DNA of 64,000 nt from Mobula hypostoma (taxonomy: Eukaryota): contig NC_086097.1 of the NCBI RefSeq assembly GCF_963921235.1, positions 96,846,001 to 96,910,000 on the forward strand, given 5' to 3'. The position numbers and the translations under genes were made by a program. Shown here piece after piece: positions 1 to 23,481 of the stretch. Under the pieces are notes generated by a model, which saw nothing but the letters and a program-made list of their open reading frames with translations, did no database searches and had not been told where the DNA came from. The number at the start of each line of letters is the position of its first letter. Within the stretch, counting starts at the first letter, position 1.

Positions 1-1430
1 TTGATGTAAGTGCTGGAGAGGCCAGTTCTGACTGACCCTGGATCACGGGTGAGATCTTCATTGGACCTTCCACAGTTTGCCTACTAACCTTGTGTGGGAG
101 TGGATGATGCCATCATCTACCTGTTGCAAAGAGCTCACTCACACCTGGATGATGTTGGTGGCACTGTGAAAATCATGTTTTTTGATTTCTCTAGTGCCTT
201 CAAAACAACCCAGCCACTTCTTCAAAAGGTTCAAAGGTAGATTTAATGTCAGAAAGATGTATACAATGTGCATCCTGAAATGCTTTTTCTTCGCAACCAT
301 CCACGAAAACGGAGAAGTGCCCCAAAGAATGAATGACAGTTAAATGTTAAAACCCCAAAGTCCCCCCCAGCTCCCTCCCTCCCATGTGTAAGTGGCAGCA
401 AGCAACAATCTCCCCTCCCCCCCCACTGACAAAACTAAAATGCACCCGCTACCAGCACTCAAGCGCGAGCAAAGCAATAGCAAAGACATAGGCCTCTGAA
501 TCTGTGCCGAAATCTTAGGCTGAGACTTTAGCATGCCGAATAGCAGCCGATTGTGGAACCCCGAGAGTGGGTCCCATTCCTGCAAAGAACTGTAGTCAGC
601 GTGTAACTCCAGGCCAGGTTCTTCTAACAAACCCTGAAAGGGAAAAATAGAGATATTAAAGATGGAAATAGGTCTGAGCAAGAAGCTGCAAAGGATGGGC
701 ATAGACAAATCCACTATCTTCTGGATTACTGACTACCTGACAAATAGACCCCAGTCTTCAGTCTGAGATGGTGATGAGTGGCACTGGAGCACCACAAGGG
801 ACTGTCTTGTCTCTGTTTCTGTTCACACTGGACACCACAGACATTCAGTACAAATCTGAGTCCTGTCACGTGCAGACGTTCTCTGATGACTCTGTGGTGG
901 TTGGGTGTATCAGAGATGGGCCCGAGTCAGAGTATGGAGGACTGGTGGACAAGTTTGTGGAGTGGTGCGGGAGGAATCTCCGGCTCCTGAATGTGGCCAA
1001 AACCAGGGAGATGGTGATTGATTTTAGGAGGAAGAGGAATGTGATGATGAGTCCTGTAATGTATACATTCTGGGAGAAGAAGTTATGGAGGTGGAGGAGT
1101 ATAAATACTTGTCAACAACAGACTTGACTGGAAATCCAACACCAAGCCTGTTTACGAGCAGAGGATAAGCAGATTCTATCTTCTAAGAAAGCTGAAATCC
1201 CTCAATATGTGTGGCAGGATGTTGGAGATCTTTTACAAGTCTGTTGTAGCGAGTGCAGTCTTCCTGTTATGGGAGCAGCATTGGTGCTGGTGATGCAAAA
1301 AGACTAAATAAACTCATCAAAAAGGCTGCATCCTTCCTTGGCTCCAACCTAGACTCTTGAGTTAGTGGTGGAGAGGACGTCACTAAACAAACATCAGTTT
1401 TGGAAAATCAGGCACATCTTCTCCATAACC
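1..1430 (+). mobile_element. Degenerate Rex1/Babar-type LINE reverse transcriptase fragment, interrupted at ~225-675 by another repeat (likely a LINE 3' end in opposite orientation)
   Basis: Translations give IMFFDFSSAF, GAPQGTVLSLFLFTL, TFSDDSVVVG and LLNVAKTREMVIDFRRK, typical Rex/Babar RT motifs, with frameshifts. Confidence 0.8.
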
Positions 1431-2029: not shown

Positions 2030-2345
2030 CTAATTATTATTACTAGTATTATTATCCTTAATATTTTCATTATTATTACCGCGGTTTTTATCATTTTTGT
2101 TTCTGTTCTCTTGAATCCCATCCCATACTGATAGTGAATTATTTTGCTGCATGGTATCGACTGATGGAACCAGCCTGTAGACTACCATGGGGATTGAATT
2201 ATATTTCAGTTGAGCAGCTGATATTACGCGATCTAACAGAATTCTTTTGCCTCCATCATCTAGACGGAAATCTTCACCAGTATTCACCAAACGGGTCATG
2301 TGCCCGAGATCCTGGGAATCCAATAGAACTGACTCTAACTCGTAA
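2030..2345 (-). CDS. Terminal exon (D) of a putative USP/peptidase C19-like gene (His-box region plus Asn-rich tail)
   Basis: Strong acceptor tttgtatcttttatgtttttgacAG (AG at 2346-2347) with a phase-2 start. Open for 104 codons: YELESVLLDSQDLGHMTRLVNTGEDFRLDDGG...IPMVVYRLV...NNN*. This resembles USP motifs Y-x-L-x-x-V...GH...DD and the terminal 'LFYRR'-type strand. Confidence 0.6.
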
Positions 2346-2546
2346 CTGTCAAAAACATAAAAGATACAAAGTTCAGTTCAAAGTGCTAAAATGACAAACA
2401 GTATTACTAGATTCTGAATTATAAACTAAAATAAACCAAATACATACTTCATTGAGTGAGCATATTCTGAACAGGATAGAAACCATTACTTTATCTTATC
2501 TATTCTTTGGAAACTTCCATCTGATTCCACAGTGAAAATATATAAC

Positions 2547-2633
2547 CTGTAGCATGTCCATAAAACAGATTGAATCTGTTCTTCCAAAAACAAATCATGG
2601 AGATCCTTTGCTAAAATCCATAAATGCACATTT
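2547..2633 (-). CDS. Possible 87-nt phase 2-2 cassette exon (C) of the USP-like gene
   Basis: AG at 2634-2635 and GT at 2545-2546. Open reading NVHLWILAKDLHDLFLEEQIQSVLWTCY, but the polypyrimidine tract is weak. Confidence 0.35.
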
Positions 2634-2699
2634 CTTAAAAACTGGTTTCCTTAATTAGGACTGTAAAGGATTTCTGTATGAGTATTGGGATCTTTGCGC

Positions 2700-3185
2700 T
2701 ATTTTCATCAGAAATTTGGGGGCGTCGGTGCAGATGTGAGTGCAGTTGCTGTTGCTAAGGAGAAGGTTCTTGGAAAGCTGAATGGTCTGAAGTTAGATAA
2801 GTCACCTGGACTAGATGGACTACACCACATTTTTCTGAAAAAGATAGCTGAAGCGATTGTGGATGTATTAGTAATGATATTTCAGGAATCATTAAATTCT
2901 GGAATGGTTCTGGAGGACTGGAAAATTGTAAGTGTCACTCTACTTTTTAAGAAGGGAGGGAGACAGAAGAGAGGAAATTATAGGCCAGTTAGCCTGACTG
3001 CAGTGGTTGGGAGGATATTGGTGTTCATTATTAAGAATGTGATTTTGGAGGCTTATGATTAAAGTTGGCTGAGAAATCTTGCCCTGACAAATCTGTTGGA
3101 ACTATTTGAGGAAATAACAAGCAGGATAGATAAAGGAAAGTTAGTGGATGCAGTTTACTTGGATTTTCAGAAGGGCATTGACATT
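2700..3185 (+). mobile_element. CR1 LINE ORF2 fragment
   Basis: KSPGLDGLH...FKKGGRQKRGNYRPVSLT motif, truncated. Confidence 0.85.
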
Positions 3186-3235
3186 ACAGCAGTCGAGGAG
3201 ACAGCACCTACGGAAAAGAGTAAACTGTCAACATT

Positions 3236-3415
3236 CAAACACGAGGAAATCTGCAGATGCTGAAAATTCAAGCAACACACACAAAATGCTGGTGGAACAC
3301 AGCAGGCCAGACAGCATCCATAGGGAAAAACACAGTCGATGTTTCGGGCCGAGACGTCGACTGTGTTTTTCCCTCTGGATGCTGTCTGGCCTGCTGCGTT
3401 CCACCATCATTTTGT
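3236..3415. mobile_element. Penelope-like element (PLE) terminal-repeat fragment arranged as an inverted repeat
   Basis: acaaaatgctggtggaacacagcaggccagacagcatcc... is mirrored by ...ggatgctgtctggcctgctgcgttccaccatcattttgt. Same family as the 22662-24956 element. Confidence 0.75.
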
Positions 3416-3429
3416 AAACTGTTGACATT

Positions 3430-3695
3430 TACTGTTACTGCTGTGATGAGGCCACATGCCAATTTGCTGGAGCAACACCTTATATTCCAGTTGGGTAGCC
3501 TTCAAGCTGATGGCATAAACACTGATTTCTCGAACTCCTGGTAATTGCCCCCCACCGCCTCTCCTTCACCATTCCCCATTCCTATTTCCCTCTCTCACCT
3601 TATCTCCTTATCTGCCCATCACATCTTCTTTTAGCTCCTCCTCTTTCCTTTTATTCCATGGTCTTCTGTCCTCTCCTATCAGATTCCCCCCTTCT
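3430..3695 (+). mobile_element. PLE GIY-YIG C-terminus and pyrimidine-rich 3' UTR fragment
   Basis: LEQHLIFQLGSLQADGINTDFSN matches the PLE ORF end at 23769. Confidence 0.75.
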
Positions 3696-3699
3696 TTGT

Positions 3700-6600
3700 G
3701 TGTCAATGCAAGGAGCATTCATAACAAGGTGGATGAATTGAATGTGCAGTTATTAATAAATATGATATAGTTGGGATCACAGAGACATGGCTCCAGGGTG
3801 ACCAAGGATGTGAGCTCAACATTCAGGGATAATCAATATTCAGGAGGGATAGACATGAAAGAAAAGGAGGTGGGGTGGCATTGCCGGTTAGAGAGGAGAT
3901 TAACACAATAGAAAGGAAGGACATTAGCCGGGAGGATGTGGAATCGATATGGGTAGAGCTGCATAACACTAAGGGGCAGAAAACGCTGGTGGGAGTTGTG
4001 TACAGGCCACCTAACAGTAGTAGTGAGTTTGGGGATGGCATTAAACAGGAAATTAGAAATGTATGCAATAAAGGAACAGCAGTTATAATGGGTGACTTCA
4101 ATCTACATATAGATTGGGTGAACCAAATTGGTAAGGGTGCTGAGGAAAAGGATTTCTTGGAATGTATGCGGGATGCTTTTCTGAACCAACATGTCGAGGA
4201 ACCAACTAGAGACCAGGCCATTCTGGACTGGGAATTGAGCAATGAGGAAGGGTTAGTTAGCAATCTTGTTGTGAGAGGCCCCTTGGGTAAGAGTGACCAT
4301 AGTATGGTGGAATTCTTCATTAAGATGGAGTTAATTCAGAAACAAAGGTTCTGAACTTAAAGAAGAGTAACTTTGAAGGTATGAGATGTGAATTAGCTAA
4401 GATAGACTGGCAAATGATACTTAAAGGGTTGACGGTGGATATGCAATGGCAAGCATTTAAAGATCGCATGGATGAACTACAACAATTGTTCATCCCAGTT
4501 TGGCAAAAGAATAAACCAGGAAAGGTAGTGCACCCGTGGCTGTCAAGGGAAGTTAGGGATAGTATCAACTCCAAAGAAGAAACGTACAAATTAGCCAGAG
4601 AAAGTGGCTCACCTGAGGACTGGGAGAAATTCAGAGTCCAGCAGAGGAGGACAAAGGGCTTAATTAGGAAAGGGAAAAAAGATTATGAGAGAAAGCTGGC
4701 AGTGAACATAAAAACTGACTGTATAAGCTTTTATAGATATGTGAAAAGAAAAAGATTGGTTAGGACAAATGTAGGTCCCTTACAGTCAGAAACAGGTGAA
4801 TTGATCGTGGGGAACAAGGACATGGCAGACCAATTGAATAATTACTTTGCAAACAACAGGAATTCTGCAGATGCTGGAAATTCAAGCAACACACATCAAA
4901 GTTGCTGGTGAACGCAGCAGGCCAAGCAGCATCTATAGGAAGAGGCGCAGTCGACGTTTCAGGCCGCGTCTCGGCCTGAAACGTCGACTGCGCCTCTTCC
5001 TATAGATGCTGCTTGGCCTGCTGCGTTCACCAGCAACTTTGATGTGTGTTGCTTGAATAATTACTTTGGTTCTGTCTTCACTAAGGAGGACATAAATAAT
5101 CTTCTGGAAATAGTAGGGGACAGAGGGTCCAGTGAGATGGAGGAACTGAGGGAAATACATGTTAGTAGGGAAGTGGTGTTAGGTAAATTGAAGGGATTGA
5201 AGGCAGATAAATCCCCAGGGCCAGATGGTCTGCAGCCCAGAGTGCTTAAGGAAGCAGCCCAAGAAATAGTGGATGCATTAGTGATAATTTTTCAAAACTC
5301 TTTAGATTCTGGATTAATTCCTGAGGATTGGAGCGTGGCTAATGTAACCCTGCTTTTTAAAAAAGGAGGGAGAGAGAAACCGGGGAATTATAGACCGGTA
5401 AGTCTGACATCAGTGGTGGGGAAAATGCTAGAGTCAGTTATCAAAGATGTGATAACAGCACATTTGGAAAGCGGTGAAATCATCGGACAAAGTCAGCATG
5501 ATTTGTGAAAGGAAAATCATGTCTGACGAATCTCATAGAATTTTTTGAGGATGTAACTAGCAGAGTGGATAGGGGAGAACCAGTGGATGTAGTATATTTG
5601 GATTTTCAAAAGGCTTTTGACAAGGTCCCACGCAGGAGATTAGTGTGCAAACTTAAAGCACATGGTATTGGGGGTATGGTATTGATGTGGATAGAGAATT
5701 GGTTGGCAGACAGGAAGCAAAGAGTGGGAATAAACGGGACCTTTTCAGAATGGCAGGCGGTGACTAGTGGGGTACCGCAAGGCTCAGTGCTGGGACCCCA
5801 GTTGTTTACAATATATATTAATGACTTGGATGAGGGAATTAAATACAGCATCTCCAAGTTTGCGGATGATACGAAGCTGGGTGGCAGTGTTAGCTGTGAG
5901 GAGGATGCTAAGAGGATGCAGGGTGACTTGGATAGGTTGGGCGAGTGGGCAAATTCATGGCAGATGCAATTTAATGTGGATAAATGTGAAGTTATCCACT
6001 TTGGTGGCAAAAATAGGAAAACAGATTATTATCTGAATGGTGGCCGATTAGGAAAAGGGGAGGTGCAACGAGACCTGGGTGTCATTATACACCAGTCATT
6101 GAAAGTGGGCATGCAGGTACAGCAGGTGGTGAAAAAGGCGAATGGTATGCTGGCATTTATAGCGAGAGGATTCGAGTACAGGAGCAGGGAGGTACTACTG
6201 CAGTTGTACAAGGCCTTGGTGAGACCACACCTGGAGTATTGTGTGCAGTTTTGGTCCCCTAATCTGAGGAAAGACATTCTTGCCATAGAGGGAGTAGAAA
6301 GAAGGTTCACCAGATTGATTCCTTGGATGGCAGGACTTGCATATGATGAAAAACTGGATCGACTAGATTTATACTCTCTGGAATTTAGAAGATTGAGGGG
6401 GGATCTTAATGAAATGTATAAAATTCTAAAGGGATTGGACAGGCTAGATGTAGGAAGACTGTTCCCAATGTTGGGGAGGTCCAGAACAAGGGGTCACAGT
6501 TTAAGGACAAAGGGAAAGCCTTTTAGGACTGAGATGAGGAAAAACTTCTTCACACAAAGAGTGGTGAATCTGTGGAATTCTCTGCCACAGGAAACAGTTG

Positions 6601-6795
6601 AGGCCAGTTCATTGGCTATGTTTAAAAGGGAGTTAGATATGGCCCTTGTGGCTAAAGGGATCAGGGGGTATGGAGGGAAGGCTGGTACAGGATTCTGAGT
6701 TGGATGATCAGCCATGATCATACTGAATGGCGGTGCAGGCTCGAAGGGCTGAATGGCCTACTCCTGCACTGATTTTCTATGTTTTTATGTTTCTC
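3700..6795 (+). mobile_element. CR1 LINE, nearly complete ORF2 (APE endonuclease + RT) and 3' tail; frameshifted and interrupted by a PLE hairpin insertion
   Basis: Motifs [43 protein letters not shown] and FADDTKL. ORF 5505-6698 is open. Tail ttctatgtttttatgtttct. Confidence 0.95.
4850..5052. mobile_element. Palindromic PLE-derived insertion with 16-bp target site duplication
   Basis: TTGAATAATTACTTTG occurs at 4834-4849 and 5053-5068. Inverted arms of ~87 bp are centred on 4967-4971. Confidence 0.9.
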
Positions 6796-7055
6796 CAGCA
6801 CTATCTCAATCAACTTGCCAGCTCTTTACTTCACTTATCCCACCCCAGTTTCACCTATCACCTCCCACCTTGTACTTCTCCTCCCCCCACCATTTTTCTC
6901 TGACTTCTCCTCTTCCTTTCCAGTCCTGATGAAGGATCTTGGCCTGAAACATTAATTGTTCACTCTTTCCATCGATGCTGCCTGGCCTGCTGAGTTGTTC
7001 CAGCATTCTGTGTGTGTTGCTTTGGATATGCAGCATCTGCAGGTTTTCTTGTGTT
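6795..7055 (+). mobile_element. PLE 3'/pLTR fragment with a degenerate hammerhead ribozyme (6921-6960)
   Basis: cagtc-CTGATGA-aggatcttggcct-GAAAc followed by the family motif gatgctgcctggcctgctgagt. Confidence 0.75.
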
Positions 7056-7059
7056 TGTG

Positions 7060-8110
7060 GTTGGATGGCTGATGGTGGCAGTGAGTGGGAATGTAAGGGG
7101 CCTTCTCCGGTCGCCTGCTGGTGATTAGTGTTGTTCCACAGGAGTCGATATTAGGAATGCTTCTTTTCATGTTATATCTCAACGATTTGGATGACAGAAT
7201 TGTTGGCTTTTTGGCCAAGTTTACAGACAATTTGCAGATGGGTAGAGGGACAGGTAGTGTTGAGGAAGCAGAGAGTCTGTAGAAGGACAGACAGATTGGG
7301 AGAATGGGCAAAGAAGTGGCAGGTGGAATTTATTGCAGGGAAGTGTATGATCATGTACTTCGGGAGAAGAAATAAAAGGGTAGACAATTTTCTAAAGATG
7401 GAGAAAATTCAAAATCAGAGGTGCAAAGGGACAAGGGAGTCCTTGTGCAGGACTGCAGGACTCACTAAAGATTAACTTGCATATTGCCTAAGGAAGGCAA
7501 ATGCAATGTTAGCATTCATTTTGAGAGGACTAGAATATAAAAGCAAGGATGTGATGCTGAGGCTTTATAAAGCACCGGCCAGACCACACGGAGTATTGTG
7601 AGCAGTTTTGGGCTCTCTATGCTGGTATTGGAGAGGGTCCATCGAATGTTAATAAGAGTGATTCTAGGAATGGAAGGATTAATGTATGAGGGGCATTTGA
7701 TGGCTCTGGGCCTGTACTTGCTGGAGTTTAGAAGAATGATCAGGAATTTTATTGAAACCTATCAAATATTGAAAGGCTTAGATAGAGTATATGTGGAGTG
7801 GACATTTCCAATAGTAGGTAAGTCTAGGACCAGAGGGCACAACCTCAGAATAGAAAGGCACCCATTTAGAACAGGGATGAGAGGAATTTCTTTATCTGAG
7901 GGTAGTGAATCTGTGGAACTCATTGCCACAAATCAATTGTGTATAGGAGAAGTCATTGTGTATATTTAAAGCCGATGTCAGGGCGCCAAAGATTACAGGA
8001 AGGCAGGAGAATGGGTTTGAAAAGAGTAATGGAACAGCTATGATCGGATGGCAGAGCAGACACAATGGGCAGGGTGGCCTAATTCTACTCCTATGTCGTA
8101 TGGCCTTCAA
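7060..8110 (+). mobile_element. Degenerate CR1 RT C-terminus and 3' UTR
   Basis: RLGEWAKKWQVEF, LGLYLLEFRRM and KSRTRGHNLRI fragments. Confidence 0.85.
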
Positions 8111-8844
8111 GTTCAAGTTTAATTCTCAGTCAACCATACATGGATACAACCGAATATCAGAGCGTTCCTCTGGGACCAAGATGAAAAACGTACGCAACAC
8201 AGTCAAAATAGCAAGCAAATATACAGTCACATAAAATAAAATACTGTGTGTATACATATTGATATACATAGTTTTATGGTCTTATTGAACTTATTGGTGT
8301 TCAGAAGAATGGGAGAAGCAGAAGGTTTTGAGGGGCTTAACAGAATGGCTAGCCAGAAGTTTCCTCTCATTGGAGCATCTACAACAGAGAAGCACATCTG
8401 GGTAAAGAGTTGCCAATTTAAAAATGATGTGACAAGCATTTTTTTTTTTTTTGTCTTTCTGAAACTCTGGAATACCCTGAGACCTGTAGAGATGCTGGCT
8501 GTATTCAACAACAAAATAGATTTTTGACCAGTTGAGGGGTTGAATGTTGTGGGGGTCAGGCATGAAAGTGAAGTTGAAGTAAGATTTCATTAGCTGTGAC
8601 ACATTAGGCATGAGGGGCTGAGTATCTGACTCCTGAAACAACATCTGAAAATGCCAAGAATATTTAGCAGGTTGGACAGTGTAGATGGAGAGATAAATAG
8701 AGTTACAGGGTTTCGATCCAGTGCCATGAATGAACAATAACACATTTCCATCAGGCTAGTGTGTGCAGAAGGCACTGTTCCCTTATTTTTGCTGCCCTGG
8801 TGCATGGTAGCAGCAGTGTAGAATCTTTTACATGTATTCCTTAC

Positions 8845-8964
8845 CTTAAATCATGTATATGCAGCATCATTTGTATACCATCGATGTTTATGAGGCGTGC
8901 TTTATTCTCCAGTGATATAATCAATGTATTAGGTGCCCCACTTGTAAAATTTGGTGGCAAACAT
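8845..8964 (-). CDS. Exon B copy 1 (120 nt, phase 2-2) of the USP-like gene
   Basis: cttttcacttgaacAG ... ttaag|GTAAG. Reads CLPPNFTSGAPNTLIISLENKARLINIDGIQMMLHIHDL; APNTLIISL resembles the USP 'P-x-x-L-x-I-x-L' box. Confidence 0.65.
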
Positions 8965-10618
8965 CTGTTCAAGTGAAAAGAATAATAGATAAAGAACCAG
9001 TGATTTAACAACAGTTTAAGAGAGAAGGTGATGGTCTAAGTGTCCAGTCTTGGTCCTGGACATGGATTTGGTTTGGAAGGGGCAGAAACCTTTATTGGAT
9101 GAAGCTGTTCAAAACGAGATACCTGGGGAGTGTAAATTAAATACTAATGATCTAATACTGACTCAGAATAAATTGGATATCCTCATCTGAATAAACAGCA
9201 CTAAAGAACCTGGCTATTGCTTGCCAGTTAAATTATGATGCATTATTCAGAATGTGGCGGACAGGGACAGTGTGAGGCTTTACAAAAGGCTGGTTGATGG
9301 GAAGGTGGCAATGTGGAGTGGGGAATTCAATGGGGTCTAAAACCAAAACAGTCATGCCTTGTGATTTCATCAGTTCACTCAATTAAATTTCATGATAAGG
9401 TGAGTTTTGGAATTCCCACCAGCTGAGTCAAAGCAAGAGATACTTTTTTTATTTTGCATTCACAGGATCTGAATACCACTGGTGAGACCATCTAAAGCCC
9501 TGTGTGGCAAAGTATTCCATAGGTTCACCTCCCTCTGAGTGAAGAAATTTCATCACCTCAGTCCAATTGTCTAACTAAATATTTCAAGACTGTGACTTCT
9601 GATTCCAGACAAACCCCGGTGCCCTCATTTTCAGGAAAGAATCTTTCTTGCACCAGCCTGTTGAGTCCTATCTCAAAAGGTCCATAAAATACCCTCATTC
9701 TCCAAGACTTTGGTGAATACAGATATACCTGACCAAACTCTCCTCTTACAACTGTCCTGCCAGGAATCTGATTGGTAAAACTTTGTCTCTTCACTCTTTG
9801 GCAAGTACAGGTTGAAACTCTTAACAATAGCATTCTGTGGACCGAGAATTCTCGCAGTCCTGCATTTTTTGGTACTGGTGCTATTACTCTGCACAACAGT
9901 CTTACAGGGTCGCTGTATTAGCATTGTGAATTAGCAAAACTTTTCTGTGTTGGCAACATTTGAGAAATGAGAACCTGCTCTCATGGAACTGATGTTTCAA
10001 ATCAAAATGCGAAATATATACAGAGGACTGAATTAATTTATTGAGGACAGCGTCTGCAGCTTGCTGGTTCACAGCAGAAGGCCACATAAGTGATTTGCTT
10101 TGGAAACAGACCAGGCAATCTCTTCTATTGATGCTGATTCAGAGTGAAAGGCCACTGTGCAGGATATGCAGTATGGGCTGGCAAGCCTAGGTGTTAGGCA
10201 TTTACTTATACGTGACAGGATGTCCTTGGGGCATTTGTTCCAGTCCAGTATCAGTTTGCTTTGAAGGGTGTAGGACCCAATCTGTATGTCCTTTCTTAAA
10301 TAAGGAGACCATTGCTGCACCCCGTGCTCAGATATATGTCTGACAATACACTGAATAGTTGTAGCAAGATATCCTTGTTCCTGTCCCTTTCAGATAAGAA
10401 CAAACAATCATTTGCACCCGTATGATTGGTTCAGATTTCCAGCATCTGTAGATTTTTTTAAAAATTTGTTTGATTTTAATGACTGGACTATAGCGACACC
10501 CAAACTCCCTATTTCCCAATCTCTTGAAATGTGAAAGTTAAGCTTTTCATTTACTCAACCCTTTCAACCAAGTCAGTTTCATTATTTTTAAAAAAACTAG
10601 CAGATAAGATGACTGTAC

Positions 10619-10723
10619 CTTCCATTGCAGTTTGATGCTTGGTGTTTAAAGAACAATTCCCCAGAAAAAAGAATGTCTACCAATTCCTGCAATTGAACTG
10701 GTTCATTGGAATTTTGAATTAGA
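10619..10723 (-). CDS. Exon A copy 1 (105 nt, phase 2-2) of the USP-like gene
   Basis: tttcttttctttatttctttatAG ... ggaag|GTACAG. Reads LIQNSNEPVQLQELVDILFSGELFFKHQASNCNG. Confidence 0.6.
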
Positions 10724-11009
10724 CTATAAAGAAATAAAGAAAAGAAATAATTAATAAATGTGTCTTAAGATACAGAAATCTTGGGAGCACCGATGTGTGT
10801 TACTGCAATTTGGAAGGATGTAAACTTTGAAGAACACTTGGATAAGGGGTCAGTGAAGTCAATAGACCGTGGAAACTCAGGATTTTCACCATGAAGGGCA
10901 GAAGAGTGAATACTTCCTACAAAGTCATGAAGGGCGTGTTGAATGGAAATAAATGGAAGTTATTCTATTGGCACAAAGATTGTAACTTTAACGTTATTTT
11001 AAAATAAAG

Positions 11010-11860
11010 TGATTTTAATGCCTCTAGGGTGGTGTGTTGCTTCTGAAGTGCCAGAATTAAGGAGGACTCTGAACGTTTGCAGCCTGTTTTCAAGGAGGAT
11101 GGTGAGCAGAAGATGTCACTGTATACATGGTTAGTAAGTTTCAGGTGACTCCAAATCTGGTGATACACTGGACAGTGAAGAAGGTTACCTAAGCTTAAAC
11201 AGGATCGAGATCAACTGGGATAGTTGGCCAAGGAACAGTAGATGGATCCTAAGTTGGGTAAGTGTGAGATGCTGCACTTTGGTAAGTTAAACCAAGGCAG
11301 AAGATGCACAGGTTGTGGCTGATCGCCGGAGAATGGTATTGAATTGAATTGAATGGTCTTTATTGTCATTATACATAGGTACAATGAAACTCTGTTTGGC
11401 TTCCTCTCAGGCAATTAAATAAAGCGGTAGATAAAAACAAGACAGTAATAGAAAAACAGTATTAAATAGATAAGTAACAGAAAATAAGTTGCAGCAGCAC
11501 CAGAATATCACAGTAATGCACAAAGTGCCGTTAGTGCAAGTATTTGAGTGCTTGTGTCTGCTCACAGTTTCAGTCATTGTTCTGTGGGAGTGGTGCGATG
11601 GAGGCCACAGCTCCGGGATAGAAGCTGTTCCTCAGTCTATTTGTTCTGGCTTTTAGTGTCCTGAACCTTTTGCTGGACGGCAGTGGGTCAAACAGGGAGT
11701 GGCCATAACAGATATCTCAGAGCGTACTACATTGTTCTCTGAAAGTGGCATCACAGCTGAACAGAGTGGTAAAGGAGGTATTTGGTATACTGGAGTTCAA
11801 TAGTCAGAGTAATGGAGCTCGGATAGTCGGATAGCATATTCTAGTCATTGTTGAATAACT
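11010..11860. mobile_element. CR1 fragments plus an inverted LINE 3' end with a (ttgaa)n tail, present only in the first array unit
   Basis: CR1-like sequence (CEMLHFGK) surrounds attgaattgaattgaat...tttattgtc. The block is missing from units 2-4. Confidence 0.65.
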
Positions 11861-12184
11861 ACTGAATGGCGACACTGCCTTCTGCAGAGCACCATTTGTA
11901 TCCTGAATAAGTTCCCACACTGACTGGAATATAATCGTCACATGTAGCAAGTAGGAGTGAAATGCTTCTCTTTGCAAGCCGTCCGGACAGTTCATTCTAT
12001 CGATCAGCAGATTGGACAGTGTAGATGGAGAGATAAATAGCGTTACAGGGTTTAGATCTAGTGACATGAATGAAAAACAACACGTTTCCGTCAGGCTGGT
12101 GTGTGCAGGAGGCACTGTTCCCTTATTTTTGCGGCCCTGGTGTGTGGTAGATGCAGTGTAGAATCTTTCACATGTATTCCTTAC

Positions 12185-12304
12185 CTTAGATCATGTATAT
12201 GCAGCATCATTTGTATACCATCAATGTTTATAAGGGATGCTTTCTCCTCCAGTAATATACTCAATGAGTAAGGTGCCCGACTTGTAAAATATGGAGGAGA
12301 ACAT
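12185..12304 (-). CDS. Exon B copy 2 (120 nt, open)
   Basis: AG and GTAAG intact. Reads CSPPYFTSRAPYSLSILLEEKASLINIDGIQMMLHIHDL. Confidence 0.55.
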
Positions 12305-13980
12305 CTGTTCAAGTGAAAAGAGTGTTAAAGAACCAGTGATTTAACAACAGTTTAAGAGAGAAGGTGATGGACTAAGTGTCCAGCCTTGGTCCTAGACATG
12401 GATTTGGTTTGGAAGGGGCAGAAACCTTTATTGGATGAAGCTGTTCAAAACGAGATACCTGGGGAGTGTAATTCAAACACTAATGATCTAATACTGACTC
12501 AGACTAAATTGGTTATCCTCATCTGAATGAACAGCATTAAAGAACCTGGGCATTGCTTGCCAGTTAAATTATGATGCATCATTCAGAACGTGGCGGACAG
12601 GGACAGTGTGAGGCTCTGCAAAAGGCTGGTTGATGGGGAGGTGGCAATGTGGAGGTGGGTATTGAATGGGGTCTAAAACCAAAGCAGTTATGCTTTGTGA
12701 TTTCATCAGTTCACTCAATTAAATTTCATGGCAAGGTGAGTTTTGGAATTCCCACCAGCTGAGTCAAAGCAAGAGATACTTTTTTATTTTGCATTCACAG
12801 GATCTGAATACTACTGGTGAGACCATCTGGAGTCCTGTGTGGCGAAGTATTCCATAGGTTCACTTCCCTCTGAGTGAAGAAATTTCATCACCTCATCCCA
12901 ATTGTCTAACTAAATATTTCAAGACTGTGACTTCTTCCAGACAAACCCTGGTGCACTCATTTTCAGGAAAGCATTTTTCTTGCACCAGTCTGTCGAGTCC
13001 TATCTCAACAGTTCCATAAAATACCCTCGTTCTCATAGACTTTGGTGAATACAGATATACCTGACCAAACTCTCCTCTTACAACTGTCCTGGCAGGAATC
13101 TGATTCACAAAACTTTGTCTCTTCATTCTTTGGCAAGTACAGCTTGAAACTCTTAGGAGTAGCATTCTGTGGACCAAGAATACTCGTAGTCCTGCATGTC
13201 TTGAAACTAGTGCCATTACTCTGCAGAACAGCCTTACAGGGTCGCTGTATTAGCAATGTAAATTAGCAAAACTTCTCTGTGTTGGCAACATTTGAGAAAT
13301 GAAATAGAAATCTGCTCTTATGGAATTGATGTTTCAAACCAAAACGCAAAATATATACAGAGGACTGAATTAATTTACTGAAGACACATCTGCAGCTTGC
13401 TGGTTCACAGCAGAACGCCACTGAAGTGATTTGCTTTGGAAACTGACCAGGCAATCTCTTCTATTGATACTCATTCACAGTGAAAGGCATTTATGCTGGA
13501 TGTGCAGAATGAGCTGGCAAGCCTATGTGTTAGGCATTTATTTATACATTACAGGGCGTCCTTGGGGCATTTGTTCCAGTCCAGCATCAGTTTGGTTTGA
13601 AGGGTGTAGGACTCAATCTGTATGTCCCTTCTTAGAGAAGGAGACCATAGCTGCACCCAGTGCTCAGATATAGGTCTGACAATACACTGAATAATTGTAG
13701 CAAGATATCCTTGTTCCTATCTCTTTTAGATGAGAACAACCAATCATTTGAATCCTTTACATCCCGCTGCACCTGTATGTTTGATTCAGATTTCCAGCAT
13801 CTGTAGATTTTTTAAAATGTTTGTTTGATCTTATTACTGGTCTACAGTGACTCCCAAACTGCTGAGTGCATCTTTATTTCCCAATGACTTTCAACGTGAA
13901 AGTTACGCTTTTTATTCACTCAAGCCTTTCGATCATCAGTTTCATTGTTCTTAAAAAACGAGCAGATAAGATGACTGTAC

Positions 13981-14085
13981 CTTCCATTGCAGTTTGATGG
14001 TTGATATTTAAAGAACAATTCCCCCAAAAAAAGAATGTCTATCAATTCTTGCAATTGAACTGATTCATTGGAATTTTGACTTAGA
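13981..14085 (-). pseudogene. Exon A copy 2; acceptor mutated AG>CG, with an in-frame alternative AG 6 nt inside
   Basis: tttacCG|tctaAG|tcaaaat. The frame is open (LSQNSNESVQLQELIDILFLGELFFKYQPSNCNG). Confidence 0.5.
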
Positions 14086-14738
14086 CGGTAAAGAAATAAA
14101 GAAAACAAATAATTAATAAATGTGTCTTAAGATACAGAAATCTTGGGAGCACCAATGTGTGTTATTGCAATTTGGAAGGATGTAAACTTTGAAGAACACT
14201 TGGTTAAGGGGTCAGTGAAGTCAATAAACCGTGGAAACTCAGGATTTTCACTATGAAGGGCAGAAGATTGAACACTTCTTTCAAATAACCTTACAACGTC
14301 ATGAAGGGTGTGTTGACAGGAAATAAATGGAAGTTATTCCATGGGCACAAGGATTGTAACTTTAATGTTATTTTAAAATAAAGTAATGTTAAAGCCTGTT
14401 GAATGGCACACACCTGGGTGATGCATCACTGCCCTCTGGAGAGAACCATTTGTGTCCTGAATAAGTTCCCACACTGACTGGATTATTCTTGTCCCATGTA
14501 GCAAGTTGGACTGAAATGCTTCTGTTTGCAAGGCGTCCAGACAGTTCATTCTATCCATCAGCCGATTGGACAGTGTTGATGGAAAGATAAATCGAGTTAC
14601 AGGGTGTGGATCCAGTGACATGAATGAACAATAACACATTTCTATCAGCCTTGTGTGTGCAGAAGGCACTGTTCCCTTATTTTTGCTGCCCTGGTGTGTG
14701 GCAGATGCAGTGTAGAATCTTATACACGTATTCCTTAC

Positions 14739-14858
14739 CTTAGATCATGTATATGCAGCATCATTTGCATACATTCGATGTTTATAAGGCATGCTTTATT
14801 CTCCAGTGATTTAATCAATGTATTATTTGCCCCACTTGTAAAATCTGAAGAAGAACAT
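14739..14858 (-). CDS. Exon B copy 3 (120 nt, open)
   Basis: AG and GTAAG intact. Reads CSSSDFTSGANNTLIKSLENKACLINIECMQMMLHIHDL. Confidence 0.55.
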
Positions 14859-16530
14859 CTGTTCAAGTGAAAAGAATGATAAAGAACCAGTGATTCAAAA
14901 ACAGTTTTAAAGAGAAGGTGATGGACTAAGTGTCCAGTCTTGGTCCTGGACATGGATTTGGTTTGGAAGGGGCAGAAACCTTTATTGGATGAAGGTGTTC
15001 AAAACGAGATACCTGGGGAGTGTAATTCAAATACTAATGATCTAATACTGACTCAGAATAAATTGGATATCCTCATCTGAATGAACAGCACTAAAGAACC
15101 TGGCTATTGCTTGCCAGTTAAAGCTATGGTGCATCATTCAGAACTAGGTGGCGGACAGGGACAGTGTGAGGCTTTACAAAAGGCTGGTTGATGGGAAGGT
15201 GGCAATGTGGAGGGGTGTATTGAATGGGGTCTAAAACCAAAGAAGTTATGCCTTGTGATTTCATCAGTTCACTCAGTTAAATTTCATGACAAGGTGAGTT
15301 TTGAAATTTCCACCAGCTGAGTCAAAACAAGAGATTTTTTTTTATTCTACATTCACTGGATCGGAATACTACTGGCAAGACCATCTAGAGTCCTGTGCGG
15401 CAAAGTATTCCATAGGTTCACCTCCCTCTGAGTGAAGAAATTTCATCACCTCAGTCCAATTGTCTAACTAAGTATTTCAAGAATGTGACTTCTTAACCCA
15501 GACAAACCCTGGTGCCCTCATTTTCAGGAAAGCATCTTTCTTGCACCAGTCTGTTGAGTCCTATCTCAACAGTTCCATAAAATACCCTCGTTCTCATAGA
15601 CTTTGGTGAATACAGATATACTTGACCAAACTCTCCTCTTACAACTGTCCTGGCAGGAATCTGATTTGTAAAACTTTGTCTCTTCATTCTTTGGCAAGTA
15701 CAGCTTGAAACTCTTAAGAACAGCATTCTGTGGACCGAGAATACTCGTAGTCCTGCATGTCTAGAAACTGGTGCCATTACTCTGCAGAACAGCCTTACAG
15801 GGTCGCTGTATTAGCAATGTAAATTAGCAAAACTTCTCTGTGTTGGCAACATTTGAGAAATGAACTAGGAACCTGCTTTTATGGAACTGATGTTTCAATA
15901 CAAAACACAAAATATATACAGAGGACTGAATTAATTTACTGAGGACACATCTGCAGCTTGCTGGTTCACAGCAGAAGGCCACTTAAGTGATTTGCTTTGG
16001 AAACTGACCAGGCAATCTCTTCTATTGATACTGATTCACAGTCAAAGGCAACTGTGCAGGATATGCAGTATGAGCTGGCAAGCCTATGTGTTAGGCATTT
16101 ATTTATACATTACAGGGTGTCCTTGGGGCATTTGTTCCACTCCAGCATCAGTTTGGTTTGAAGGGTGTAGGACTCGATTTGTATGTCCTTTCTTAGAGGA
16201 GACCATTGCTGCACCCAGTGCTTTAGCTATAGGTCTGACAATACACTGAATAATTGTAGCAAGATGTCCTTGTTCCTATCTCTTTTAGATGAGAACAAAC
16301 AATCATTTGTATCCTTTACATCCCGTATGTTTGATTCAGATTTCCAGCATCTGTAGATGTTTTAAAATGTTTGTTTGATCTTATTACTGGTCTATAGTGA
16401 CACCCAAACTGCTGAGTGCATCTTTATTTCCCAATGTCTTACAACGTGAAAGTTACGCTTTTTATTCACTCAAGCCTTTCAATCATCAGTTTCATTGTTT
16501 TTAAAAAACGAGCAGATAAGATGACTGTAC

Positions 16531-16636
16531 CTTCCATTGCAGTTTGATGGTTGATATTTAAAGAACAATTCCCCAGAAAGAAAGAATGTCTATCAATTCT
16601 TGCAATTGATCTGATTCATTGGAATTTTGATTTAGA
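16531..16636 (-). pseudogene. Exon A copy 3, inactivated
   Basis: Acceptor AG>CG and a +1 insertion (106 nt). Confidence 0.55.
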
Positions 16637-17289
16637 CGGTAAAGAAAAAAAAGAAATAAATAATTAATAAATGTGTCTTAAGATACAGATATCTTGGGAG
16701 CACCCATGTGTGTTATTGCAATTTGGAAGGATGTAAACTTTGAAGAACACTTGGTTAAGGGGTCAGTGAGGTCAATAAACCATGGAAACTCAGGATTTTC
16801 ACTATGAAGGGCAGAAGATTGAACAATTCTTTCAAATAATCTTACAAAGTCATGAAGGGTGTGTTGACAGGAAATAAATGGAAGTTATTCCATGGGCACA
16901 AGGATTGTAACTTTAATGTTATTTTAAAATAAAGTAATGTTAAAGCCTATTGAATGGCACACACCTGGGGGATGCATCACTGCCCTCTGGAGAGAACCAT
17001 TTGTGTCCTGAATAAGTTCCCACACTGATTGGATTATTCTTGTCCCATGTAGCAAGTTGGACTGAAATGCTTCTGTTTGCAAGCCGTCCAGACAGTTCAT
17101 TCTATCGATCAGCCGATTGGACAGTGTTGATGGAAAGATAAATCGAGTTACAGGGTGTGGATTCAGTGACATGAATGAACAATAACACATTTCCATCAGC
17201 CTTGTGTGTGCAGAAGGCACTGTTCCCTTATTTTTGCTGCCCTGGTGTGTGGTAGATGCAGTGTAGAATCTTTAACACGTTTTCCTTAC

Positions 17290-17409
17290 CTTGTATCATG
17301 TATATGCAGCATCATTCGCATACATTCGATGTTTATAAGGCATGCTTTATTCTCCAGTGATTTAATCAATCTATTATTTGCCCCACTTGTAAAATCTGAA
17401 GAAGAACAT
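17290..17409 (-). CDS. Exon B copy 4 (120 nt, open)
   Basis: AG and GTAAG intact. Reads CSSSDFTSGANNRLIKSLENKACLINIECMRMMLHIHDT. Confidence 0.55.
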
Positions 17410-19084
17410 CTGTTCAAGTGAAAAGAATGATAAAGAACCAGTGATTTAACAACTGTTTTAAAGAGAAGTTGATGGACTAAGTGTCCAGTGTTGGTTTGGA
17501 CATGGATTTTGTTTGGAAGAGGCAGAAACCTTTATTGGATGAAGCTGTTCAAAACGAGATACCTGGGGAGTGTAAATTAAATACTAATGATCTAATACTG
17601 ACTCAGAATAAATTGGATATCCTCATCTGAATAAACAGCACTAAAGAACCTGGCTATTACTTGCCAGTTAAATTATGATGCATTATTCAGAATGTGGTGG
17701 ACAGGGACACTGTGAGGCTTTACAAAAGGCTGGTTGATGGGAAGGTGGCAATGTGGAGTGGGGAATTCAATGGGGTCTAAAACCGAAACAATCATGCCTT
17801 GTGATTTCATCAGTTCACTCAATTAAATTTCATGATAAGGTGAGTTTTGGAATTCCCACCAGCTGAGTCAAAGCAAGGGACACTTTTTTATTTTACAGTC
17901 ACAGGATCTGAATACCACTGGAGAGACCATCTAAAGCCCTGTGTGGCAAAGTATTCCATAGGTTCACCTCCCTCTGAGTGAAGAAATTTCATCACCTCAG
18001 TCCAATTGTCTAACTAAATATTTCAAGACTGTGACTTCTTAACCCAGACAAACCCTGGTGCCCTCATTTTCAGGAAAGCATCTTTCTTGCACCAGTCTGT
18101 TGAGTCCTATCTCAACAGTTCCATAAAATACCCTCGTTCTCATAGACTTTGGTGAATACAGATATACCTGACCAAACTCTCCTCTTACAACAGTCCTGCC
18201 AGGAATCTGATTCGTAAAATTCTGTCTCTTCATTCTTTGGCAAGTACAGCTTGAAACTCTTAAGAGTAGCATTCTGTGGACCGAGAATTCTCGTAGTCCT
18301 GCATGTCTTGAAACTGGTGCCATTACTCTGCAGAATAGCCTTACAGCGTCGCTGTATTAGCAATGTAAATTAGCAAAACTTTTCTGTGTTGGCAACATTT
18401 GAGAAATGAAATAGAAATCTGCTCTTATGGAATTGACGTTTCAAACCAAAACGCAAAATATATACAGAGGACTGAATTAATTTACTGAAGACACATCTGC
18501 AGCTTGCTGGTTCACAGCAGAACGCCACTGAAGTGATTTGCTTTGGAAACTGACCAGGCAATCTCTTCTATTGATACTCATTCACAGTGAAAGGCATTTA
18601 TGCTGGATGTGCAGAATGAGCTGGCAAGCCTATGTGTTAGGCATTTATTTATACATTACAGGGCGTCCTTGGGGCATTTGTTCCAGTCCAGCATCAGTTT
18701 GGTTTGAAGGGTGTAGGACTCAATCTGTATGTCCCTTCTTAGAGAAGGAGACCATAGCTGCACCCAGTGCTCAGATATAGGTCTGACAATACACTGAATA
18801 ATTGTAGCAAGATGTCCTTGTTCCTATCTCTTTCAGATGAGAACAAGCATTTGTATCCTTTACATCCCGCTGCACCTGTATGTTTGATTCAGATTTCCAG
18901 CATCTGTAGATGTTTTAAAATGTTTGTTTGATTCTAATTACTGGTCTATAGTGACACCCAAATTGCTGAGTGCATCTTTATTTCCCAATGACTTGCAACG
19001 TGAAAGTTACGCTTTTTATTCACTCAAGCCTTTCAATCATCAGTTTCATTGTTTTTAAAAAACGAGCAGATAAGATGACTGTAC

Positions 19085-19190
19085 CTTCCATTGCAGTTTG
19101 ATGGTTGATATTTAAAGAACAATTCCCCAGAAAGAAAGAATGTCTATCAATTCTTGCAACTGAACAGATTCATTGGAATTTTGATTTAGA
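19085..19190 (-). pseudogene. Exon A copy 4, inactivated
   Basis: Acceptor AG>CG and the same +1 insertion as copy 3 (106 nt). Confidence 0.55.
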
Positions 19191-19843
19191 CGGTAAAAAA
19201 AATAAAGAAATAAATAATTAATAAATGTGTCTTAAGATACAGAAATCTTGGGAGCACCCATGTGTGTTATTGCAATTTGGAAGGATGTAAACTTTGAAGA
19301 ACACTTGGTTAAGGGGTCAGTGAAGTCAATAAACCATGGAAACTCAGGATTTTCACCATGAAGGGCAGAAGATTGAACAATTCTTTCAAATAATCTTACA
19401 AAGTCATGAAGGGTGTGTTGACAGGAAATAAATGGAAGTTATTCCATGGGCACAAGGATTGTAACTTTAATGTTATTTTAAAATAAAGTAATGTTAAAGC
19501 CTGTTGAATGGCACACACCTGGGTGATGCATCACTGCCCTCTGGAGAGAACCATTTGTGTCCTGAATAAGTTCCCACACTGACTGGATTATTATTGTCCC
19601 ATGTAGCAAGTTGGACTGAAATGCTTCTGTTTGCAAGCCGTCCAGACAGTTCATTCTATCGATCAGCCGATTGGACAGTGTTGATGGAAAGATAAATCGA
19701 GTTACAGGGTGTGGATCCAGTGACATGAATGAACAATAACACATTTCTATCAGCCTTGTGTGTGCAGAAGGCACTGTTCCCTTATTTTTGCTGCCCTGGT
19801 GTGTGGCAGATGCAGTGTAGAATCTTTTACACGTATTCCTTAC

Positions 19844-19962
19844 CTTAGATCATGTATATGCAGCATCATTCGCATACATTCGATGTTTATAAGGCATGCT
19901 TTATTCTCCAGTGATTTAATCAATGTATTATTTGCCCCACTTGTAAAATCTGAAGAAGACAT
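19844..19962 (-). pseudogene. Exon B copy 5, 1-nt deletion (119 nt)
   Basis: Splice sites intact, but gaagaagacat replaces the gaagaagaacat seen in copies 3 and 4. Confidence 0.5.
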
Positions 19963-20716
19963 CTGTTCAAGTGAAAAGAATGATAAAGAACCAGTGATTC
20001 AAAAACAGTTTTAAAGAGAAGTTGATGGACTAAGTGTCCAGTCTTGGTCCTGGACATGGATTTGGTTTGGAAGGGGCAGAAACCTTTATTGGATGAAGCT
20101 GTTCAAAATGAGATACCTGGGGAGCGTAATTCAAATACTAATGATCTAATACTGACTCAAACTAAATTGGTTATCCTCATCTGAATGAACAGTGATAACG
20201 AACATGGCCATTGCTTGCCAGTTAGATGATGGTGCATCATTCGGATATTGGCGGGGGACAGGGGCAGTGTGAAGCTCTGCAAAAGGCTGGTTGATGGGAA
20301 GGTGACAATGTGGAGTGGGGTATTGAATGGGGTCTAAAACCAAAGCAGTGATGCCTTGTGATTTCATCAGTTCACTCAATTAAATATCATGATAAGGTTT
20401 TTGGAATTCCCACCAACTGAGTCAAAGCAAGGGATACTTTTTTATTTTACATTCACAGGATCTGAATATTATTGGCAAGACCACCTAAAGCCCTGCGTGG
20501 CAAAGAATTCCATAGGTTCACCTCCCTCTAAGTTAAGAAAATTCTTCACATTAGTCCAATTGTCTAACTAAATGTAGAAGGATGTAAAAGCTCAGAAATC
20601 AAACAGAAAAGACACACTCTAAGGACCCAGGGATGATGGAGCAGCAATATCATCCAGAACAAAGTGACTCGTAATTGGCAATCTGTCCATTAACTTCATA
20701 GATGTTTGTGACTAAC

Positions 20717-20749
20717 CTGCCTTCAGTTGATGGGAATTGGTGAAATTTG
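20717..20749 (-). CDS. Candidate 33-nt phase 2-2 mini-exon upstream of the array
   Basis: ttcttggttcctttcttaagtattttcAG ... ggcag|GTTAGT. Reads KFHQFPSTEG. Confidence 0.35.
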
Positions 20750-21056
20750 CTGAAAATACTTAAGAAAGGAACCAAGAATAACAGAAGGATGAGTTAGATG
20801 CTGCAGTATTTTGTTTTTCTATTGTTTGAGCTCATTCAAATATATTAAAGGTATATAAAATTCTTTCCTTTTATAACTTTGGATAATTTGGTTTATTTTA
20901 AATATTCATATAACATTTATTTTTTAGGATGCATGCACCAAAAACATCCAGCAATTCATAAGTGTTGCATAAATTTTAAAAATCTATCAAACTGCCAAAG
21001 TTTGCAATACCTCAGTATTCAGATTAGTAGAAAAAGTGGTAACGGGAATAGCATTC

Positions 21057-21466
21057 TGTAGCGGTGTGCTAAACACAGCGCTAGAATAACCACACGGAGT
21101 CGGCGAGTTGGAGTTGCGATAAAGAGATTTATTCAAACTTCGCGGCCTGCTTTTAAGCCTTCCCGTTCCCGCCCTTCCTGGGGCGGGATTGCTGTGGGGA
21201 ATGCATATTCCCAGACCCTTCCCGCGAGCGGGATTTTCCCCCTGCTGGTGAAGATGGCCTGGCGCTCTTTTTGAGGCGGGCCTCTCTGCCGGTGTGCGCC
21301 GGTTCGTGTGTGCTAGAAACACACATAAAAGTTGCTGGTGCACCTCTTCCTAGAGATGCTGCCTGGCCTGCTGCGTTCACCAGCAACTTTTATGTGTGTT
21401 GTTTGAATTTCCAGCATCTGCAGAATTCCTGTTGTTTGCGTGGGTGCTAGAAAGTGGGTCGCCACA
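21057..21466 (-). mobile_element. Solo LTR (TG...CA) with 4-bp TSD ATTC, containing a PLE insertion
   Basis: attc|TGTAGCG...CGCCACA|attc, with AATAAA on the minus strand near 21130. Confidence 0.8.
21320..21438. mobile_element. Short PLE pLTR insertion with a partial inverted repeat and ~15-bp TSD
   Basis: cgtgtgtgctagaaa (21305-21319) and cgtgggtgctagaaa (21439-21453) flank PLE terminal sequence. Confidence 0.8.
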
Positions 21467-22043
21467 ATTCAAAGCGATGCTCCTGTTATGGTTGAAATAA
21501 CGTAGCGGAGGGCGCTGCAAACACCATAATTTAACGCAAGCCATTTTGTTAAACACAGGCTATCCTGAGATAGTTTACGTACAAAGCAGGAAATTGCCTT
21601 TTCTCATTTATTCCTTCTACTGTAGGGTTACGAAATTTGGAAAAATGTACATAATTCAGAAACACTAACATAGTGTTTCGCTGCAAGAGGATAGTGTGAT
21701 GTAATGACATGTTAAGCAAGGATTTTTAGCACGTTTATCTGTTCAGATTTTGGAGTTCAATAAAATGTACTACGGGTTTCATTAAACATAAAACGCTTCA
21801 CTTTGTTTTAATTTGTGAACACCAACACTACCACCCCTATTTAATATTATTCTCAAACATAGCGAAAGGTGTCGTTGGGCTAGTAGCTTCTTGTCTTGCC
21901 GAGGACCGTGAAATATCCTGATATTGGACAGTCTTTTACACTTGTTGTGAGGCACATAGTTAAACAAGAGTGTCAATGATAAATCTTAATTAATGGAGTG
22001 GTGTATCACTGCGTCCCCACCCTCCTCCATTGTCCACACTCAC

Positions 22044-22100
22044 CGAAGTTGATGAAATCTCATATTTCAAAGCTGATATAGTCCAATAAAACTTCATGAT
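22044..22100 (-). CDS. Candidate 5' exon (57 nt) of the USP-like gene
   Basis: cttattgaacAG ... ttcg|GTGAGT is a consensus donor. Only one frame is open (IMKFYWTISALKYEISSTS, phase 0), and it does not join directly to the phase-2 exons. Confidence 0.3.
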
Positions 22101-22199
22101 CTGTTCAATAAGTACAGATTACAAATCACAGCACACACTTTAGAATTTACCTCTGATGATTCTTCATTTAATGTTTGTTGCAGACTAGTTTTCTGAAAA

Positions 22200-22290
22200 A
22201 CAGCTTCGGTGGCTGGCAATTATATCCGGTTAGGTAGCGCATGCGTATAGACTCGTTGACGCCGCAGGGTGTTACGTTTTCCGAATTGCT
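22200..22290. promoter_or_regulatory. Small CpG-enriched patch with an NRF1-like GCGCATGCG motif (22237-22245); candidate promoter
   Basis: Local CpG cluster in unique sequence, just upstream of the minus-strand candidate exons. Confidence 0.3.
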
Positions 22291-22725
22291 TGTTCTTAAT
22301 ATTGAGGGGAACTAGTTGAGGGGTGAAATGATGGGAGAGTGGGAAAACATGGAGAGGAGTGACACATTTATAATATTTTGAGGAAGTTTTGAGTTTGAAT
22401 GGAATTTTTAAAAAAATTGCCAGCCAACAGTTAGTGAACGATCTACAACCTCAAAAATGTTCAAAAGTAAATGTACTATTAAAAGTACATATATGTCACC
22501 ATATACAAACCTGAGAGTAATTTTCTTCCAGGCATACTCAATAAATCTGTAATAGGATAATAACCATAATAGAATCAATGAAAGACCACACCAACTTGGG
22601 CATTCCATCAGTGTTCAAAAGACAACAAACTGCAAATACTAAAAGAAAGAAATAATAATATTAGCAACACACATCAAAGTTGCTGGTGAACGCAGCAGGC
22701 CAGGCAGCATCTCTAGGAAGAGGTA

Positions 22726-22767
22726 CAGTCGACGTTTCAGACCAAGACCCTTCATCAGGTCTAACTG
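22726..22767 (-). ncRNA. Minimal type I hammerhead ribozyme (stem I mismatch)
   Basis: Reverse complement reads agac-CTGATGA-agggtcttggtct-GAAA-c-GTC-gactg. Confidence 0.7.
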
Positions 22768-23439: not shown

Positions 23440-23481
23440 CAGTCGACGTTTCAGGCCGAGACCCTTCGTCAGGACTAACTG
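23440..23481 (-). ncRNA. Minimal type I hammerhead ribozyme, intact core
   Basis: Reverse complement reads agtc-CTGACGA-agg(gtctcgg)cct-GAAA-c-GTC-gact: stem I agtc/gact, stem II agg/cct, palindromic ACGT stem III and a GUC cleavage triplet. Confidence 0.85.

Follow-up and report, generated by a model that had tools for sequence, protein, structure and literature searches.

A nameless ray gene probably carries the C-terminal half of a divergent ubiquitin-specific protease behind a tandem exon array

The ubiquitin-specific proteases (USPs; MEROPS C19, Pfam PF00443 UCH) include several members that strain the standard motifs of the family. Atypical or pseudo-USPs such as USPL1, USP53/54, USP50 and USP39 are divergent proteins with the USP fold that keep the whole domain. 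For USP4, the available text of one study describes D1 and D2 halves that are active when co-expressed and share a zinc, D2 being a laboratory fragment of one polypeptide (PMC4243247). Here we analyse LOC134336369, a gene of the devil ray Mobula hypostoma that is already annotated by NCBI as uncharacterised and lies on the minus strand of a 64,000-nt stretch (GCF_963921235.1, contig NC_086097.1, positions 96,846,001 to 96,910,000 of the forward strand; hereafter the window). Its product escapes or strains the standard motifs as these proteins do; unlike them, it likely corresponds to half of a domain. The core encoded by exons A, B and D shares the box order and spacing of the C-terminal USP half, including a finger Cys and an aromatic-x-x-x-Asp, and starts about where the separable D2 half starts; the likeness to D2 is one of domain boundary, and in the ray the half is the whole annotated gene. 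The core lies below Pfam detection and has one to four additional copies of a single exon ahead of it, and no Pfam match ties the family to USPL1, USP53/54, USP50 or USP39. We found no paper naming the locus and nothing on a USP-like family of this kind in cartilaginous fish; in the available text of an evolutionary survey of deubiquitinases, cartilaginous fish come up only in connection with known paralogs (PMC5381560). The results below indicate that the A-B-D core very probably descends from a USP.

In the window, exons B5, B4, B3, B2, A1, B1, D (2080-2345) and E (from 633) translate letter for letter to XP_062886712 (P0003, isoform X2), and use of another donor, at 22044, yields the beginning of isoform X1 (P0004); both isoforms of the M. 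hypostoma gene fall in the same protein cluster. NCBI holds five ray proteins of this kind, XP_062886712 and XP_062886623 from M. hypostoma, XP_072120769 and XP_072120778 from M. birostris and XP_072894185 from Hemitrygon akajei, all of them nameless and without a precomputed Pfam domain. The ray models are predicted records, and the splicing described here rests on them and on a relative, P0006. All five models, from three species, take the form B(n)-A-B-D and skip dead A copies. An earlier reading of this DNA, made from its letters only (the sequence-only reading), had proposed a hidden gene with minus-strand exons A, B and D joined in phase 2 and a further exon C. The three exons are where it placed them, A and B bounded by AG/GT and D with an AG acceptor; each is open in the required frame, and the peptide quoted there is contained in P0003. 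The gene is not hidden, as NCBI lists it, and exon C was not identified, none of the five NCBI models having an exon between B1 and D.

The joined order of A, B and D is more than chance, since it recurs in a second ray family and in the more distant P0006. A search with exon D gave two matches among 48 candidates, an M. birostris protein at 100% and the H. akajei protein at 73% identity, both orthologs of the gene. A core-profile search of 1.84 billion representatives returned four matches, namely two ray proteins, P0006 and a mucin, P0007 (E 1.3e-4, 32 residues), the last of which was dropped as a Cys-rich chance match. P0006 is a 167-aa protein (E 2.8e-16, 37-39% identical to the ray proteins) that holds the equivalents of A, B and D in one frame, where the corresponding exons span 8.7 kb in the window; the joined form would thus exist in this relative as a transcript or an intronless copy. 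P0006 begins at the first codon of exon A and comes from a 912-nt contig, so that its start may be natural or may reflect a contig cut at its 5′ end. Across the three aligned members there are 50 invariant columns at 37% identity. Behind the Asp strand, P0002, P0003 and P0006 share their best-conserved family-specific features, namely a block of seven invariant residues and a C-terminal helix that is also conserved; neither has a clear counterpart in USP profiles, and they form a candidate binding surface.

For the comparison with USPs, sets were fetched with a Cys-box pattern known for the family, and 53 of 121 viral loci and 29 of 117 metagenome loci were kept (34 of the metagenome USPs passed the filter and 5 over 520 aa were dropped). 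One fetched USP was checked as Pfam UCH (5.7e-47). Similar patterns served to fetch both sets, which are not entirely independent of each other. Profile-profile alignment (hhalign) of the three-member core against the USP profiles gave P values of 0.0071 over 106 columns and 0.0024 over 123 columns; with a merged USP profile, P was 0.0016, positions 6-136 of the family aligning with positions 185-331 of 359. All alignments were confined to the C-terminal half of the USP profiles. In register were the opening helix, the P-x-x-L-x-I-x-L strand, the Y-x-L strand, the His box and the aromatic-Asp strand, and the terminal Tyr strand was aligned in two of the three profile alignments. None of 588 shuffles reached the alignment score (0/188 by column, 0/200 and 0/200 by blocks). 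With reversal, the alignments reached 15.9 and 10.8; five unrelated profiles from the window gave 10.7-17.8, versus 26.8 for the core. The order of C-terminal USP boxes that the sequence-only reading had named (finger return, P-x-x-L-x-I-x-L, Y-x-L, His box, terminal strand) is therefore present, though at an HH probability of 5-16%. Two Cys are kept in all three aligned members, while the zinc-ribbon pair from the first half is missing; a four-Cys ribbon at the finger tip is present in part of the USP family. The proposal of a divergent, lineage-restricted spliced gene with a USP fold is partly supported: the product resembles the C-terminal USP/C19 boxes, and probably only half of the domain is encoded.

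Two model-based comparisons point the same way. In the ESM Atlas, residues 155-300 of P0003 gave a first match at 0.93 (UCH on 10% of cluster members) and a second, also at 0.93, with UCH on 98%, and all ten of the ten best family matches were in the UCH clan. We also predicted, without alignments, a complex between the core and the first 190 residues of an unrelated USP. It scored 0.56 vs. 0.06 for the best of three controls; contacts were shared between runs to at least 82%, and the partner had a predicted local distance difference test (pLDDT) value of at least 64. Of 78 solved complexes 51 pass the mark used for such scores, as do 2 of 108 mismatches; for eukaryotes the figures are 39 of 65 for solved pairs that lack a like complex and 2 of 126 for unrelated pairs. 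Scores of 0.60 or below include only 5 of the 78 solved complexes and all four passing mismatches of 180. The value of 0.56 is rated as weak support; we take it to show likeness to solved USPs and not binding.

The candidate His and Asp that the sequence-only reading had seen as kept are H250 and D265 of P0003, invariant in 4/4 aligned sequences; they align with the USP His and the following Asn/Asp, the third catalytic residue. Its statement that an N-terminal Cys box is lacking was also borne out: the box is absent from the five NCBI models and from P0006, and the frame is closed before the ATG. The QQD box and the thumb are missing as well, and there is no counterpart to profile positions 1-184. 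As the Cys-box half is missing, the product would be inactive alone. Directly after His, Mobula and Hemitrygon have Met and P0006 has Ile; an aromatic residue at this place is the gatekeeper in most deubiquitinases, and USPL1 keeps it, according to the available text of PMC7391069. At the fourth critical residue, given as Asp in USPs in the available part of PMC10867860, the ray family has an invariant Gly (G266), and Hemitrygon has Val instead of Gly before His. These substitutions suggest a loss of catalytic constraint. A Cys-box regular expression found nothing in the window. A Cys-box hidden Markov model (HMM) run over 3067 window fragments also found nothing, being so insensitive that known exons were missed (exon A itself had E 35), and splice-bounded exon lists of the window held no Cys-box exon, a weak result as the donor cut-off also missed A and D. 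We considered and rejected a circularly permuted USP-like protease: in 6/6 proteins the tails after the terminal strand are short, without Cys and end in stops. Judged by these motifs, the product does not qualify as a USP enzyme, though it likely descends from one.

The features of the locus are collected in Table 1. The array contains five B copies, one in each unit, of which four are open, and four A copies, most units having one. Its 5′ edge lies inside the A-B intron, and B5 is thus without a preceding A. Only A1 keeps an AG acceptor, two of the three copies with CCG being also frameshifted. The array is a mosaic in which the nearest copy changes along the unit: B1 and B4 have 0/120 differences just upstream of B, and B3 and B5 differ at 1/119 positions in the exon, a pattern as expected from gene conversion or unequal crossing-over. 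Exon B looked like a peak of divergence when set against whole-unit introns (B2-B4, 23/120 vs. 114/2146, p 3e-7), but with local flanks as the reference p is 0.006, and with the downstream intron 0.067; the comparison of nonsynonymous with synonymous changes gave p 0.098. Positive selection on exon B is not claimed, as the local flanks are also more diverged, the array is a mosaic and the signal is not robust. The Pro of the USP strand and one of its hydrophobic residues are gone from B3-B5, and these repeats probably do not fold as the core B does.

Table 1. Features of LOC134336369 in the window (positions counted from its first letter).
Feature	Position	Strand	Remarks
Candidate first exon	22151..22290	minus	donor after 22151; ATG 22167, in-frame TAA directly before; 22290 is the bound given by the sequence-only reading
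Alternative longer first exon, coding part	22044..22097	minus	second donor; used by isoform X1
Exon B5	19844..19962	minus	119 nt, one base short; holds ATG of isoform X2
Dead copy A4	19085..19190	minus	CCG acceptor, frameshifted
Exon B4	17290..17409	minus	open, AG/GT
Dead copy A3	16531..16636	minus	CCG acceptor, frameshifted
Exon B3	14739..14858	minus	open, AG/GT
Copy A2	13981..14085	minus	open frame, CCG acceptor; left out of NCBI models
Exon B2	12185..12304	minus	open, AG/GT
Exon A1	10619..10723	minus	105 nt; helix opening the USP second half, then finger segment with Cys
Exon B1	8845..8964	minus	120 nt; second finger Cys, P-x-x-L-x-I-x-L strand, following loop
Exon D	2030..2345	minus	Y-x-L strand, H250 and D265 (P0003 numbering), terminal strand, conserved tail helix
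Exon E, coding part	596..633	minus	12 residues and stop; both M. hypostoma isoforms and one M. birostris isoform
Tandem array	8666..20573	minus	about 4.6 units of about 2.55 kb, 89-94% identity (self-BLAST); all five B copies AG/GT

Exon D occurs in a long form, with an Asn-rich tail and a stop at 2030-2032, and in a short form with a donor after 2080. At the other end of the gene, the M. birostris models P0001 and P0005 open with the same 5-6-residue start as the candidate first exon, and in that species the first-exon ATG is in frame with the first B. In the M. hypostoma assembly the ATG at 22167 is out of frame with B5, as the base missing from B5 breaks the frame from exon 1 and creates an in-frame ATG at the start of B5. 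Splicing to B4, B2 or A1 would be in frame (305, 225 and 185 aa). The one-base shortfall may be a real allele or an assembly error. The stretch around exon 1 (21001..22500) is CpG-enriched, with observed/expected ratios of 0.66-0.82, and is likely the promoter. It contains, at 22237-22246, the sole match in the window to the motif GCGCATGCGT, which we take to be NRF1-like; 0/100 shuffles had a match. A 42-nt open segment bounded by AG/GT lies between exon 1 and B5 on the minus strand (20717-20758); it has good splice scores and is absent from the NCBI models.

We give an about even chance to the explanation that the gene is a 5′-truncated, catalytically incomplete USP half still under some constraint. 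The ancestor would have been a full-length, fast-evolving USP gene of cartilaginous fish, in which the A-B segment was duplicated in tandem. The upstream part, including the Cys-box 5′ exons and the first A copy, would then have been lost, and the CpG-promoter exon would splice onto B copies or A. Extra A copies would have lost their acceptors, so that in the mRNA an intact half-domain would follow on a series of 40-residue B repeats. Such a half-domain would need a partner surface to fold; its product would be unable to cut ubiquitin alone and would persist as a non-catalytic protein through binding, with a putative role as binder of, or decoy for, ubiquitin-like substrates or partners of USPs. 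Truncation is supported by the in-frame TAA directly before the ATG, the CpG-rich exon 1 and the array edge in the A-B intron, and by all five NCBI models of the three species, in each of which the start lies in exon 1 or a B copy. For constraint on the core, M. hypostoma and M. birostris differ at 1/137 residues of the core and at 9/159 of the extra B repeats (Fisher p 0.023), a contrast which suggests that the core continues to be constrained.

Several results weigh against this explanation or against the USP origin on which it builds. No match to Pfam UCH, UCH_1 or another peptidase was found for the exons, whole models, core stretches or P0006, so that of the profile checks foreseen by the sequence-only reading the Pfam one was negative and the profile-profile one positive but weak. 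PDB sequence searches gave no relevant match, and weak matches to ISP1_C, C4bp and MazF were treated as chance. Against a USP HMM the members reach about 0 bits, the HH probabilities quoted above are low, and single members are unconvincing alone (P 0.18; 0.049 in the wrong region; 0.26). The first Atlas match shares 161 features, whereas 170 are typical for true members of a family; a score of 0.9 is attained by shuffled proteins in 4-10 of 100 cases, a third of them showing full family agreement, the calibration was not made for parts of proteins, and P0006 has no UCH match there (top 0.86). The structure prediction that had likewise been suggested gave low-confidence AlphaFold models twice, from alignments of two and three rows (pLDDT 35.3 and 34.7); fold searches with them reached Z of at most 4.0 and listed no USP and a few papain-type proteases at Z 3-4, results that are void at that confidence. 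No full-length parent was found among the 1.84 billion representatives; a three-member profile run against proteins of 91-587 aa recovered the same three clusters only (3/7010 candidates), and a two-member profile at 250-2000 aa gave P0001 only (1/1391). We therefore infer the loss of the 5′ half rather than observe it. The start of P0006 at exon A is equally compatible with a half-gene of long standing and with a recent truncation, and the between-species orthology of the repeats is uncertain because of the mosaic array.

If the resemblance to USP boxes were due to chance, the gene would encode an orphan beta-rich protein. The missing Pfam and PDB sequence matches and the Atlas result for P0006 would agree with this; five boxes in the right order and spacing, scoring above all shuffles and controls, the Atlas UCH matches of P0003 and the weak pass of the complex prediction make it very unlikely. 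An origin of the core from a viral or transposon-borne USP, domesticated as a fragment, is extremely unlikely. No vertebrate paralog is detectable, the loops are compact and one Atlas cluster stems from giant viruses, which is no sign of transfer. Against these stand the many canonical introns, 0 relatives among 125 candidate stretches in viral contigs and the lack of a transposase or reverse-transcriptase domain in the models. A USP-derived remnant that is transcribed and spliced in rays, with no selected protein, is rather unlikely. The 73% identity between two families of one order is low, the frame from the ATG at 22167 is broken by the short B5 in this assembly, A copies are dead and the C-termini vary. 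Yet, every member has an open A-B-D frame, indels that distinguish the ray models involve whole codons, the core is better conserved than the repeats and the invariant columns include the seven-residue block. Among the options left by the sequence-only reading (pseudo-enzyme, truncated gene, pseudogene), the plain pseudogene is less likely in view of this conservation.

The remaining two explanations keep an active enzyme in sight. In one, the NCBI models are truncated side products, and unannotated N-terminal exons far upstream splice to A1 to give a full-length active enzyme. The A1 acceptor is the strongest among the scored exons of the gene (9.8 bits), His and Asp are intact and the Cys-box scan was insensitive; all the same, five models from three species lack such exons, the CpG-rich first exon has a closed frame, the listed non-repeat upstream stretches hold no plausible exon and GPCR (G protein-coupled receptor) genes lie upstream on the same strand, and we regard this explanation as rather unlikely. 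In the other, the gene is one side of a natural split USP: its D2-type half would combine in trans with the product of a second gene, a Cys-box half, to form an active two-chain protease. We consider this a minor possibility, and put no more trust in the joining of the halves through a shared zinc site and the palm. We know of no natural split USP in animals. The core starts where the helix after the USP insertion point starts, and His, Asp and one finger Cys are invariant across 37% identity. The distant P0006 also begins at exon A, no full-length relative appeared among the representatives searched, and the core complements a foreign N-terminal half in silico, weakly and as likeness only. 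The activity and shared zinc of co-expressed USP4 halves, as described in the available text of PMC4243247, agree with this explanation. However, no gene for an N-terminal half was seen in the window by the weak tests applied, the contig of P0006 may be cut at its 5′ end, the gatekeeper and the fourth Asp are missing and Hemitrygon lacks the Gly before His. In a broader form, which we find similarly doubtful, an old family of His/Asp halves in cartilaginous fish would be completed in trans by a Cys-box half or would act as a regulator by swapping into host USPs; in devil rays, the tandem B repeats would then add a variable interaction arm.

The analysis gives a likely fold to a nameless ray protein and points to a divergent USP lineage of cartilaginous fish that is invisible to Pfam. 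If the half-gene is old and acts in trans, it would be a case of the USP4-type D1/D2 split used in nature. If the gene is instead a recently truncated USP, it would be a modest, clean case of exon-array duplication and splice-site loss remodelling a dead enzyme, and it predicts a full-length parent still to be discovered.

The surroundings of the gene contain further elements. Just upstream of the CpG-rich first exon, at 22661-24953, are several nested copies of a GIY-YIG-bearing element, presumably Penelope-like. A near-intact long interspersed element (LINE) with endonuclease and reverse transcriptase, which we take to be RTE-like, lies on the plus strand at 27344-30699 and has a 755-aa open stretch. 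On the minus strand, a rhodopsin-family GPCR at 39558-40513 is read in two overlapping frames, both matching Pfam 7tm_1; it is broken near 39980 and its middle is apparently shortened. A second GPCR fragment is found at 44362-44652. In the B1-D intron, head-to-head inverted copies of a short repeat at about 4860-5050 form a near-perfect palindrome with arms of about 85 bp, inside a LINE.

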